A DNA stretch of 64,000 nt from Escherichia coli O157:H7 (GTDB lineage: Bacteria; Pseudomonadota; Gammaproteobacteria; Enterobacterales; Enterobacteriaceae), in the NCBI RefSeq assembly GCF_013167455.1, contig NZ_CP038332.1, one strand, 5' to 3'. Positions 12,001-18,000 of this stretch are shown here, one piece after another. Positions within the stretch are counted from its first letter, which is position 1. Each line of letters starts with the position of its first letter. The position numbers are program-made.

Positions 12001-15000
12001 GCCTGAAATATGCCCTTGTTCTGTGCAAAATCCATATAGTCACGGATGTAGAAATTTGAAATATCCATCTGTGACGCAAAAGAATATGAGGATTGTAATA
12101 AGCCTAAAAAACATAATGCAAGTATGCGTTTGTGTTTTTTCTTACCAGTTGCTCTTGATGATACTCTGCCGGATAATTCAGAAACAGCGATTAACCCTCC
12201 TGTAATATGGCTGTATTTAAGAGAGTATATTTTATTCATATAAGCTCCATTTTTAAGGGAAACATTGGTTTTTCTAATGTATCAGAGGTGTGTCTCTGAC
12301 AGTCGTGAACATTGTAATCATTGAACCGCCCCGGTTTTCCTGGAGAGTGTTTTATCTGTGAACTCAGGCTGCCAGATCATCGTTTCTGATGGAAGCATAA
12401 TAAGCTTTTTCTGCTTCTGCCGGAGGGATATGACCCAGCCTTCCCAGCAATCGTCGATTGTTATACCAGTCCACCCACGTGAGTGTGGCCAGTTCCACTT
12501 CTGCACGGTTTTTCCAGCTCTTACGGTGTATTACCTCCGCTTTGTAAAGACCATTGATGCTCTCCGCCATCGCGTTGTCATACGAGTCACCTGTACTCCC
12601 TGTTGATGCCAGCAGTTTTGCTTCTTTTAGTCGCTCCGTATAGGCCAGTGATACATACTGAGAACCTTTATCACTGTGATGGACTGTGCCGGACGGCCGA
12701 CGGGCCCACAACGCCTGCTCCAGTGCATCCAGCACGAATGTCGTTTCCATAGACGATGAGACTCGCCACCCCACGATACATCCGGCAAACACATCAATGA
12801 TGAACGCCACATAGACGAAGCCCTGCCATGTGCTGACGTAAGTAAAATCAGCCACCCACAGCTGGTCAGGACGTTCTGCCACGAACTGACGGTTTACGCG
12901 GTCGCCTGCGGAAACGGCTTTCCGGCTGACGGTAGTACGGATCTTTTTACCCCGGAGAACACCGGCAAGTCCCATAACCGCCATGAGGCGCGCCACTGTA
13001 CATCTGGCCACCCTGATACCTTCGCGTAACAACTGGCGCCAGACTTTACGCACACCGTACACCTGATGATTTTCATCGTATACGCGCTGTATCTCTCTCT
13101 TCAGCCAGTCATCGCGCTGAGCACGGGCACTGCGTTTATCAGGATGATGTCGCTGTTGCTGACAGTGGTAATACGTTGACGGGGCAATATGCAGCTCACT
13201 GCATACCGGTCCGACCCCGTACTGCTCACGCAGCTTATCCAGCAGTGGCATTATTTTTTCCAGAGGCGGTCGAACTCCGCCTTCGCAAAATAAGCGGAAG
13301 CCTGGCGAAGGATATCGTTACTGCGGCGCAGTTCACGATTTTCACGTTCCAGCCATAAAGTTATGTTCCTGACGTATGTATTCGTCCCGCAGGAATCAAC
13401 CAACTGATTTATCTGAATTTATCATGCCCCTCAACTCTGATTTTATTCATCTTGTTTACCGAATCGGGTATATCTGATAACTGTCCCGATAAGACTTTTT
13501 GTTTCGCCAGCATAATCTCTTTTTCAAGCTTTTGAAGTTCTTTTATATAGTCATTCTTCCCTTCTTCATCAGCCGGTGAAATGCTCTCAGGAAGACGCTT
13601 CATTGACTCATCTACAGCATCATCCATTCTGTCAAGAGCTTCAAGAAGCTCCTTTTTATCCATTGATGACTGAAGTACACTCATATTCCTTGCAAGAACT
13701 TGCATGCTTTCATCAAGTTCTTCTGCCACTGTAATCCCCCCACACAAAAAATATAATGCCATACCACAGCTGATTATAACTTTATTGCTTTTCTGCATAA
13801 TTTCTCCTTCATGAGGGAGGTGCCCTCCCTCATCAGTTTTATCATTTATTGTTTAAATCAAACCGATCGCTATTCATAACTTTATTCCACGATTTAACAA
13901 AATCATGAATAAACTTATTTCTCGCATCATCCGAGGCATATACTTCTGCCACCGCACGTAATTCAGGATTTGAACTGAAGATTAAATCAACAGAGGATGC
14001 TTTCCATTTTAATGCTCCCGTTTTACGATCGAATCCATTGTATGTATCTTCTTTATCTGCTTTACTCCATCGTGTTGACATATCCAGCAGATTAACAAAA
14101 AACTTGTTATCCAGAACACCAGGGGTATCGGTAAACACTCCCAACGAAGAATTATTTGTATTAATATCCATTACCCGCAGACCACCCAGTAATGCCGTCA
14201 TTTCAGGAACGGTGAGATCCAGCTGACTGGCTTTATCAATGAGGCTTTCAACCGGCGATATATGACTTCTGCTTTTTGAGTAATAATTTCTGAATCCATC
14301 TGCTGTCGGCTCCAGTACACTGAATGAGGCAACATCCGTCTGCTCCTGAGAGGCGTCAGTTCTTCCCGGAGTAAAGGGAATCTCAAGTTCCACCCCGGCT
14401 TTTCTGGCCGCATCTTCGATTGCAGCATTACCCGAAAGAACAATTAAATCAGCCAACGACACTTTCTTTCCGTCAGACTGTTTTTTGTTAAATTCACGCT
14501 GTAATGAGGTCAGGGATGCCAGTACTTTCTTCAGTTTTTCAGGCTCATTAACTTCCCAGTTAATTTCGGGCTGTAACCTGATGCGGGCACCATTATTTCC
14601 CCCACGATAATCAGTCACACGAAATGTGGAAGCTGAAGCCCAGGCTGTCTTTATCAGCTCAGATGCAGGGATACCCAAATCCATAACCTGCTCTTTCAGC
14701 GACTTAATGTCTTTACCATCAATCATTGTATAATCCGCCGCAGGAAGAGGATCCTGCCAGATAAATGATTCTGCAGGAACTTCATTACCAAGATATCGGG
14801 CTGCCGGTCCCATATCCCGGTGGGTCAGTTTAAACCATGCTCTTGCGAATGCCTGCTCAAAAGCTTTTGGATCATTCAGGAAACGGGTGGTTATTTTCTT
14901 ATATTCAGGATCAACTTTAAGAGCAATATCCGTCGTAAACATCATCAACGGATGCAGGACAGACGGATCATGCGCGTCCTGAACTATATTTGCCGCTTTT

Positions 15001-18000
15001 TTAGGCTTCCACTGATAAGCACCGGCAGGACTCTTGTGCAGCTCCCATTCATATTTATATAAATTCTTCAGATACTGCATTGTGAACTGGGTTGGCGATG
15101 TCGACCAGGCTCCTTCCAGGCCACTGGTGATGGTATATTTGCCGTTTCCTGTACCACATTTATTTTTCCATCCCAGTCCCTGCTCCTCCACAGGTGCACC
15201 ATCAGGCCCTGCGCCAATACATTTTTCAGGAGACGCTGCACCATGTGCTTTACCAAATGTATGCCCTCCCGCGATCAGGGCCACAGTCTCCTCATCATCC
15301 ATGGCCATACGTGAAAAAGCTTCCCTGATATCTTTCGCGGAAGCCAGAGGATCTGGTTTTCCACCGGGGCCTTCAGGATTGACATAAATAAGTCCCATCT
15401 GCGTGGCGGCAAGAGGTTTCTGAAGTTTCCCGTTTTTATCCCGGTTATCTGCAAGAGGCTTGTTGTCAGGCCCCCAGTATACCAGGTCCGACTCCCAGTC
15501 ATCTTCTCTTCCGCCAGCAAATCCCAGCGTTTTAAATCCCATGGATTCAAGGGCAACATTACCAGTCAGGACCATCAGGTCTCCCCAGGAAATACTGGAG
15601 CCGTATTTTTTCTTGACTGGCCACAGCAATCGACGGGCTTTATCCAGATTAACGTTATCCGGCCAGCTGTTCAGCGGTTCAAAACGTTGCTGACCACCAC
15701 TGGCGCCTCCCCGGCCATCATATGTCCTGTATGTTCCGGCACCGTGCCAAGCCATACGAATAAAGAAAGGACCATAATGACCATAATCCGCAGGCCACCA
15801 ATCCTGGGAAGTTGTCAGCAAATCTTTGATATCTTTTTTCAGAGCCTCCATATCCAGCTGTTGAAATCTGGTGGCATAATCAAAATCAGCCCCCCAGGGA
15901 TTTGATTCAGGGCTGTGTAATCTCAGAGGAGTTAAATCCAGTGTTTCTGGATAGTAGAAATTTTGAGTCTCTTTTTTATCAGCGGCTACAGCGGTAGAAA
16001 AGCTCCCCGATAGCGCCAGAAGAATCAGAACAGGAAGAGTTTTTTTTATCATACGAATAGCTCCGGATTAAGGGAAATTCGCATGTTGTATACAAAAGTC
16101 AACTTTATTGATGCAACAGGATATACCTATTGCTGGGATAGATACTACAGACAAAAAATACTAAGGGGTTCCAAGCCGCAACTGACGATGCCGTTGAGTG
16201 CTGCGCAGACCTGAATATTCCCTTCTTTGTGGATGTCAGAAACAAAAAGCTGGTCTTCTGGTTTGTACGTGTTGATGACGAAGGGTATCCTGAAATAGCC
16301 CGCTGCACGGAGCGGGAGTTTGCGACCATTCTTGCCGGTATCAGCGCCGGCGGCATGTACTGCCCGGAGTGTGGCACGGTTCACTGGCCGGACGGAGTTC
16401 CCCCGCCCTTCTGATGCTTCCCCGTTTTGCCGACATTTTTCAGCAGGGAAACCGCTGGCTTAACTGGCTGGAGAAACAACCGGAAGGTTCAGTGCGTCCG
16501 GTAGTCATTGAGTCTGTGACAAAAATCATGGCCTGCGGGACCACGCTGATGGGGTACACACAGTGGTGCTGTTCATCTCCGGACTGCAGCCACATAAAAA
16601 AGGTCTGCTTCCGGTGTAAAAGTCGCTCCTGCCCGCACTGCGGAGTGAAGGCTGGCGCACAGTGGATACAGTATCTGCTGAGTCTGGTTCCCGACTGTCC
16701 GTGGCAGCATATTGTGTTCACACTTCCCTGCCAGTACTGGTCCCTGGTGTTCCACAACCGGTGGTTACTGGCAGAGATGAGCCGCATTGCTGCGGATGTG
16801 ATACAGGAAATCTGCCGCCAGGCAGATGTGCGACTACGAACTCGAACCACAATCTGCCAGTTGCGCCAAATCTGCTGAACCAGACGTTCGCTCCTGCAGC
16901 ACCAAATCAGGTCTGGGTGGCGGACCTGACGTATGTTGCCACACAGGAGGGATGGTTGTACCTCGCTGGCATCAAAGATGTTTATACGTGCGAAATTGTC
17001 GGCTACGCCATGGGAGAGCGCATGACAAAAGAGCTGACAGGTAAAGCCCTGTTTATGGCGCTCAGGAGCCAGCGCCCACCTGCCGGGCTAATCCACCACT
17101 CTGATCGAGGTTCACAGTACTGCGCATACGATTACCGGGTCATACAGGAGCAGTTTGGTCTGAAAACATCAATGTCGCGTAAAGGTAACTGTTACGACAA
17201 CGCTCCGATGGAAAGCTTCTGGGGAACGCTGAAAAATGAGAGCCTGAGCCACTATCGTTTTAATAACCGGGATGAAGCCATCTCAGTAATACGGGAATAC
17301 ATTGAGATTTTCTACAATCGTCAGCGTCGTCACTCTCGTCTGGGGAATATCTCCCCGGCAGCCTTCAGGGAAAAATATCATCAGATGGCTGCTTAAAAAA
17401 AGAACAAATGGTAGTGTCCGCTATTGCCAGTACACCTCACCGGACCTGGTGATACCGGATGCGCTGGCAGCAGAAGGAAGCAGTAAACGGGACTGGAATC
17501 GCTTCCTGGACAGTCATTACCGGCGGGGCTGGAATGTCAACGTATCCCGGGTGATGGATAACGCCACACATGTGGCGGTGTACTTCGGCTCTTACCTGAA
17601 AAAACCGCCGGTGCCGATGAGCCGTCTGGAGCACTATGCTGGTCAGGATGAAATAGATCCATTTAATTGACGGCGGTGCACTCATGGCACGCAGGCAGTG
17701 TTGAATAAACATCCGTTTTTGGGTGTTTTTTTAATCTTTTTGGGATTTAAATTCCTATCGATCAAGATCATAACTCGCATATCTGTTCTTTTTATGTATA
17801 TCTATATCTATTTTTGTGACGAGTTCAAACCACAATGTTCGCACTCCCCATGCTGCGTTATGAAACATTTCCGCAACGGCTATAGAGTCTGTATTAACTG
17901 CTTCAGTCATGTAGTCGCTAATACGTTCAGCGGTAATTTTCGTTATTTCATCGTAATTCATTTTATCTCCTACAAGATTATTTAAATATCTGGCCTGATA

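Follow-up and report, generated by a model that had tools for sequence, protein, structure and literature searches.

Cytochrome b562 is a much-used model and engineering protein, familiar from BRIL fusions and metal-templated assemblies, and to our knowledge its biological function has never been established. The turnover of catalase-peroxidases of the KatG type can be stimulated in vitro by artificial peroxidatic donors, and we know of no natural reductant of their peroxidase activity. Genes for both kinds of protein are joined in Yersinia, where a secreted KatG, a cytochrome b562 (CybC) and a cytochrome b561 (CybB), the last being a membrane cytochrome linked to the quinone pool, are encoded side by side. 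The katY-cybC-cybB genes were found to form a single transcript by reverse-transcription PCR (PMC2231364). Moreover, katG, cybB and cybC of Y. pseudotuberculosis are raised by 6.7–7.5 log2 units under H2O2 and are among the most strongly peroxide-induced genes of Yersinia (bioRxiv 10.64898/2026.03.04.709318). The present analysis concerns a related locus in a 64,000-nucleotide stretch of DNA from Escherichia coli O157:H7 (contig NZ_CP038332.1), hereafter called the window, which is 100% identical to pO157, the plasmid of strain EDL933. At this locus the gene of the secreted catalase-peroxidase KatP is followed by a gene for a 129-residue protein. This small protein genuinely belongs to the b562 family, though it has diverged strongly; it has been inherited together with KatP, and with slightly better than even confidence we read it as the periplasmic reductant of the KatP peroxidase cycle. 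Neither the gene nor its annotation is new: RefSeq lists the product as 'cytochrome b562', PGAP gives the same name in complete E. coli genomes throughout, and the assignment to the b562 family was established before this analysis, as was the Yersinia katY-cybC-cybB precedent. The contribution made here is the co-inheritance of the two proteins, together with an analogous copper carrier that replaces b562 in another lineage.

The two genes form a compact cassette with the following parts.

13842..16052, minus strand: katP, secreted (periplasmic) catalase-peroxidase, 736 residues (open reading frame and NCBIfam profile scores)
15984..16052, minus strand: predicted Sec-type signal peptide of KatP, about residues 1–23 (N-terminal sequence)
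13409..13798, minus strand: divergent cytochrome b562, WP_001172748.1, old tag L7018, 129 residues (profile, model and RefSeq)
13724..13798, minus strand: predicted signal peptide of b562, residues 1–25
13703..13705 and 13424..13426, minus strand: codons of b562 Met32 and His125, respectively
13811..13833, minus strand: intercistronic GC-rich hairpin (minimum free energy and z score)
13804..13809, minus strand: Shine-Dalgarno sequence AAGGAG of b562, 5 nucleotides 5' of the ATG (direct reading of the sequence)
16053..16164, minus strand: conserved upstream (candidate promoter) region of the cassette (homology to Citrobacter locus L006)
13350..13408, minus strand: 3' tail of the cassette, homologous to the Citrobacter locus (blastn boundary at 13350)

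Between the stop codon of katP (13842–13844) and the ATG of b562 (13796–13798) lies a gap of 43 nucleotides (13799–13841). A first-pass annotation of the window had described a small signal-peptide-bearing gene at this distance after katP on the same strand, and each of these features was recovered. The identity of KatP itself is clear, as it scores 1212.6 bits against NF011635 (cut-off 981) and 1082.7 bits against TIGR00198 (cut-off 770).

The small protein belongs to the cytochrome b562 family by several lines of evidence. Its residues 27–129 cover positions 1–102 of the 102 in the Pfam model PF07361 (Cytochrom_B562; E 2.3e-14), and the NCBIfam model NF011632 (cytochrome b562) is matched from end to end (E 2.9e-17). 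The latter match reaches 63.1 bits against a curated cut-off of 130, and the protein is not a CybC equivalog. Its identity to E. coli CybC amounts to 21–24%, solved b562 structures are found weakly by sequence-only comparison (E about 0.06–0.14), and a profile search of 1.84 billion representatives matched only 290 clusters. The haem ligands are nevertheless in place. The first-pass annotation had taken the motifs LDESM (residues 28–32) and HDKFR (residues 125–129) to hold the CybC ligand positions, and the alignment bears this out: Met32 and His125 line up with the CybC axial ligands Met7 and His102 and are invariant in two family alignments. The C-terminal R-x3-H-x-K-[FY]-R motif is retained in the alignment to CybC, and almost every one of some 100 full-length family representatives has the ligand Met and His. 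The predicted fold agrees with the profiles. The AlphaFold2 model, computed from an alignment of 46 sequences, has a mean predicted local distance difference test score of 86, with at least 92 in every 10-residue block from residue 31 onward. It consists of four helices (residues 24–44, 48–66, 78–103 and 107–128). A Foldseek search of the model against the PDB placed b562 and its engineered variants on top, and 256b_A superposes with a TM (template modelling) score of 0.87 and a root-mean-square deviation of 1.7 Å over 105 columns.

The N-terminus of the protein has the look of a Sec-type signal peptide, with a charged n-region, a hydrophobic core and T-V-A before Glu26; Ala25 is invariant among close homologues. 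After cleavage before Glu26 the ligand Met would be residue 7 of the mature protein, which is its place in CybC too. A lipoprotein signal was considered for Cys11 and Cys19 and rejected, because I-I-S-C11 leaves a hydrophobic core of four residues and F-L-C19 does not fit a lipobox; furthermore, neither cysteine is conserved in homologues. As judged from its sequence, the 129-residue protein is probably a periplasmic four-helix-bundle cytochrome, and it would be expected to bind haem b. The L7018 protein has been detected by proteomics and was 6.3-fold more abundant in the piglet gut than in vitro (PMC3686733). Many of the top-scoring b562 matches in the representative set are long proteins of 343–640 residues (P0018–P0030) with an internal or terminal b562 domain, which are probably engineered BRIL fusion constructs and not natural proteins.

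The pairing of b562 with a secreted KatG extends well beyond pO157. Genomic context was surveyed through 12 exact-protein look-ups covering about a dozen loci, which amounts to a sample and not a census. A b562 gene was found directly 3' of a signal-peptide-bearing KatG gene, on the same strand, in three further lineages of E. coli as well as in Citrobacter, Salmonella and Y. pseudotuberculosis. The b562 proteins paired with KatG in E. coli or E. coli-type loci are 57% identical to the pO157 protein in metagenome and sequencing-run contigs (L002 and L003), 53% identical in chromosomal islands (L012–L015) and 31–38% identical at L017 and L018. The surrounding genes differ at every paired locus. 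In all of these loci both proteins bear predicted Sec-type signal peptides. The carrier gene follows katG directly in nine of nine katG-carrier loci, at 38–78 nucleotides past the stop codon in eight of them and at 138 nucleotides in Salmonella. Between pO157 and the Citrobacter locus (L006), homology is confined to positions 13350–16164, and the conserved unit is thus a 2.8-kb two-gene cassette with about 110 nucleotides of upstream sequence. The cassette is matched in 481 of 5,426 complete E. coli genomes.

Synonymous divergence (dS) from pO157 was nearly the same for the two genes in each of three comparisons.

pO157 and L003: katP 1.08, b562 1.09
pO157 and L012: katP 1.58, b562 1.52
pO157 and L006: katP 0.21, b562 0.23

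The equal dS of katP and b562 within each pair indicates that the two genes have been inherited together. The ratio of nonsynonymous to synonymous divergence (dN/dS) is about 0.05 for katP and 0.22–0.27 for b562. The b562 gene is maintained by purifying selection, though it evolves about five times faster than katP. The first-pass annotation had proposed that the two proteins are a functional pair, and this proposal gains support from the adjacency across diverged lineages, the equal synonymous divergence and the published Yersinia operon.

It could be argued that b562 is a passenger without present function, carried by its linkage to katP and by the mobility of the cassette. The cassette is indeed small, flanked by insertion sequences (IS) and horizontally mobile, and b562 has diverged far from CybC, to a score below the equivalog cut-off. 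However, the dN/dS of b562 is held at the above values over dS of up to 1.5, and the open reading frame, signal peptide, ligands and ribosome-binding site are intact in all lineages. The protein is made, as the proteomic detection shows (PMC3686733), and 433 of the 481 matching genomes keep at least 80% of the cassette, almost always on plasmids. We regard a functionless passenger as highly improbable.

Perfect pairing of a 10-bp GC-rich stem around a 3-nucleotide loop gives the hairpin at 13811–13833 a minimum free energy of -19.8 kcal/mol (z -4.2). It has no U-tract on the mRNA strand, and AAGGAG and the ATG come directly after it. A stable hairpin lies between the katG stop codon and the ribosome-binding site of the carrier gene in nine of nine katG-carrier loci (the window, L003, L006, L012, L017, L023, L025, L027 and L034), including those in which the carrier is a pseudoazurin. 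Its sequence varies by lineage and the structure persists, with z from -1.8 to -5.5. The hairpin is probably a partial terminator or a 3'-end stabiliser that lowers the expression of the carrier relative to the enzyme. By homology with the Yersinia operon, katP and b562 are probably co-transcribed; for pO157 this is suggested by the short gap, by the lack of a U-tract after the hairpin and by a sigma-70 scan, which predicted no internal promoter between the genes. In the region upstream of katP, of which about 110 nucleotides are conserved across four diverged loci, the same scan found no promoter site. A CTAT-N7-ATAG palindrome at 16127–16141, adjoining a candidate -35 hexamer TTGCAT read by eye, may be suggested as an OxyR site; a search upstream of katP for the full OxyR consensus gave no match at three or fewer mismatches, and only the central CTAT-N7-ATAG core is present. 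KatP contributes to OxyR-regulated peroxide resistance according to Uhlich 2009, as cited in PMC5363993. Downstream of b562, no convincing terminator was found in the 3' tail (13350–13408), where the fold is no better than that of shuffled sequences (z -0.42).

The first-pass annotation had left the function of the pair as haem delivery or electron transfer, and the strongest evidence on this choice comes from Burkholderiaceae. Burkholderia ambifaria and Trinickia caryophylli encode secreted KatG enzymes that are 70–71% identical to KatP. About 55 nucleotides past each katG lies a gene for an exported pseudoazurin of 152–153 residues, with TIGR02375 scores of 134.8 and 139.1 bits (cut-off 109.85).

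L027:7284-7742: pseudoazurin gene of B. ambifaria
L034:6242-6703: pseudoazurin gene of T. caryophylli

The two loci have different neighbourhoods. In both, an unrelated blue-copper protein that carries single electrons stands in for the haem carrier in the slot after katG. Since a copper protein cannot deliver haem, the property common to both partners is one-electron transfer. A tblastn search of plasmids with KatP and Burkholderia KatG2 returned no further pseudoazurin-linked loci, in a plasmid set without any Burkholderia KatG2.

Delivery or buffering of haem deserves consideration against this background. KatP, exported unfolded by Sec, must acquire haem b in the periplasm, and b562 could take up haem in that compartment and pass it on to apo-KatP, or it could shield the periplasm from free haem. 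Both proteins are predicted to be Sec-exported haem-b proteins and lack a twin-arginine motif, the haem ligands of b562 are strictly conserved, and b562 binds haem reversibly and non-covalently. The pseudoazurin in the Burkholderiaceae slot, being unable to carry haem, runs counter to such a role, and the Yersinia module is extended by a membrane electron-transfer cytochrome and not by a haem transporter. Additionally, secreted KatGs of Francisella and of a Methylococcaceae metagenome-assembled genome (MAG) do without such a partner, and recombinant KatP has reportedly been active without co-expressed b562. Haem delivery is decidedly unlikely; of the two functions named in the first-pass annotation, electron transfer is favoured because of the pseudoazurin in the same slot and the b561 gene in Yersinia.

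In Y. pseudotuberculosis the b561 gene is the third after those of KatG and b562 (NF008566, 338 bits). The E. coli, Citrobacter and Salmonella cassettes examined have no b561 gene. Downstream of the pO157 b562 there is no cybB remnant, and IS629 begins 55 nucleotides past the stop codon. The relative L003, which is not truncated by an IS, has no downstream open reading frame of cybB size (about 176 residues), the longest before the next gene being 76 residues. These observations bear on another explanation, namely that b562 is co-regulated and co-inherited with KatP as part of a defence cassette in which the members have parallel, independent oxidative-stress functions. A b562 and a b561-type cytochrome might then take part in, for example, periplasmic superoxide or quinone redox reactions, and nothing would be donated to KatP. 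E. coli CybB is reportedly a superoxide:quinone oxidoreductase, and the much faster evolution of b562 than of KatP is as expected of proteins that share no tight interface. The co-induction with cybB by H2O2 in Yersinia points in the same direction (bioRxiv 10.64898/2026.03.04.709318). However, it is the combination of KatG with a soluble carrier that all paired loci have in common, and not that of carrier with b561. The carrier comes directly after katG, with a hairpin between, each time, and the type of carrier changes while its KatG partner stays. Independent functions in parallel are therefore judged unlikely.

Electron donation to KatP, the preferred reading, may be pictured as follows. 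Reduced b562 would give single electrons to oxidised intermediates of KatP, either compound I and II or off-pathway radical states, and KatP would thereby act in the periplasm as a peroxidase driven by a reductant. Small reductants of the NADH type would not be at hand in this compartment, and the catalase reaction, which consumes two peroxide molecules, would be inefficient at low peroxide. The b562 might in turn regain electrons from the quinol pool by way of a b561-type cytochrome in the membrane, supplied in cis in Yersinia (cybB) and presumably in trans in E. coli, and the intercistronic hairpin would probably set the level of the carrier below that of the enzyme. The energetics are compatible with such a flow of electrons. 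The midpoint potentials of b562 (near +170 mV) and pseudoazurin (near +270 mV) both lie far below those of KatG compound I and II. Moreover, pseudoazurin is a known donor to the cytochrome c peroxidase of Paracoccus.

Several points weigh against this mechanism. KatG is already an efficient catalase, and a donor may be dispensable. A loose or non-specific interaction would fit the roughly fivefold faster evolution of b562. No carrier gene adjoins the gene of the secreted KatG in Francisella or in the one Methylococcaceae MAG, and many b562 genes lie away from katG (P0031 of E. coli, a chromosomal copy in Salmonella and copies on Salmonella F-like plasmids), so that the partnership appears clade-specific and not obligatory. 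As the pO157-type cassette has no b561 gene, it leaves the reductant of b562 unspecified. In addition, the searchable literature, which omits most subscription journals, yielded no experiment, biochemical or genetic, on electron transfer between b562 and any KatG.

A wider generalisation is offered more tentatively, and with somewhat less than even confidence. Secreted enzymes of the KatP/KatY type may not be stand-alone catalases, and may instead be the terminal enzymes of a short periplasmic electron-transfer chain with an interchangeable donor, b562 in Enterobacterales and pseudoazurin in Burkholderiaceae. If this holds, it would provide the first physiological role for cytochrome b562 and the long-sought natural peroxidase reductant for KatG, and peroxide would become a respiratory electron acceptor for these pathogens. 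For enterohaemorrhagic E. coli, it would clarify how host-derived peroxide is removed in the periplasm by a plasmid-encoded, virulence-associated enzyme. The cassette makes both questions, the role of b562 and the reductant of KatG, directly testable. In the same searchable literature, no paper was found that describes b562 as a donor to a catalase-peroxidase or the alternation of b562 with pseudoazurin.

The searches also brought up b562 genes in other settings. The closest unpaired relative found is P0031 (L016:3607-3996), an E. coli b562 with 43% identity to the pO157 protein, whose gene comes after that of a LysR-type regulator on a short contig. Stand-alone b562 genes occur in the leading region of Salmonella F-like plasmids (L019:5001-5384 and L020:5001-5384), between a traM-adjoining transglycosylase (SLT) gene and a hok-type toxin gene, near psiB and ssb. 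The leading region is an unexpected site for a periplasmic cytochrome. Furthermore, a contig search for the close subfamily returned only five contigs (L007–L011), 92–100% identical to the pO157-type b562 and too short to reveal any gene context. They are recorded as Lachnospiraceae MAGs, Acinetobacter idrijaensis and Terrisporobacter mayombei, and are most likely E. coli contamination or mis-binning.

On pO157 the cassette is enclosed by mobile elements on both sides, just as the first-pass annotation had it when it placed the pair between IS629 and IS91 remnants.

12364..13353, minus strand: IS629/IS1203 (IS3-family) element or remnant, abutting the 3' end of the cassette
16369..17670, plus strand: IS91-family transposase remnants (16369–16878 and 17302–17670), on the 5' side of the cassette

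The open reading frame at 12364–13251 encodes an IS3-family transposase (NCBIfam transpos_IS3, 311.5 bits), and positions 13300–13353 match DNA that bears the label 'IS3-like element IS1203 family transposase' on many plasmids, IS1203 being the same as IS629. On the other side, the IS91 fragments score 97.9 and 32.7 bits (NCBIfam transpos_IS91) and are split by an IS3-family fragment at 16662–17396 (transpos_IS3, 244.4 bits). The stretch 16183–16513 upstream of katP, which holds a hypothetical open reading frame of 61 residues (16229–16414, RefSeq WP_001302179.1), has a 77%-identical copy at L012:9704-10034, about 1.3 kb downstream of b562 in a chromosomal island of E. coli. The stretch probably belongs to a mobile element that travels with the cassette. 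Farther out, as annotated in pO157, the IS629 copy is adjoined by the gene of the serine-protease autotransporter EspP (8337–12239, minus strand), and beyond the IS91 remnants there are genes for a RelE/ParE toxin and a ribbon-helix-helix antitoxin (18056–18615, minus strand).

Set beside the known systems, the pO157 cassette shares parts with each of them. With CybC (PDB 256B) the small protein shares a predicted periplasmic location, a cleavable signal peptide, a mature length of about 104–106 residues and a four-helix bundle, in which Met of helix 1 and His of helix 4 occupy the same mature positions (7 and about 100–102). It differs in being plasmid-borne and tied to a katG gene, and it is more acidic (isoelectric point 4.8 against 5.4). 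The Yersinia operon encodes a secreted KatG 75% identical to KatP; a hairpin and then a b562 gene come next on the same strand. However, Yersinia has a canonical CybC, which scores 159 bits and shares 50% identity with its E. coli counterpart; the pO157 protein is only 26% identical to the Yersinia b562, and the pO157 cassette consists of two genes only. The katG-linked b562 of Salmonella likewise scores above the cut-off of NF011632, with 160 bits. The 'catalase-peroxidase 2' loci of Burkholderiaceae resemble pO157 in combining a secreted KatG, a GC-rich hairpin and a small Sec-exported one-electron carrier, whereas that carrier is a blue-copper cupredoxin (TIGR02375) and not a haem protein. 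The nearest functional parallel would be the di-haem cytochrome c peroxidase (Ccp), likewise a periplasmic peroxidase, whose electrons come from the respiratory chain by way of a small soluble one-electron carrier, cytochrome c or pseudoazurin. Ccp belongs to an unrelated enzyme family with c-type haems, and the donor relation that has been experimentally established for Ccp is the one that b562 may hold towards KatP.

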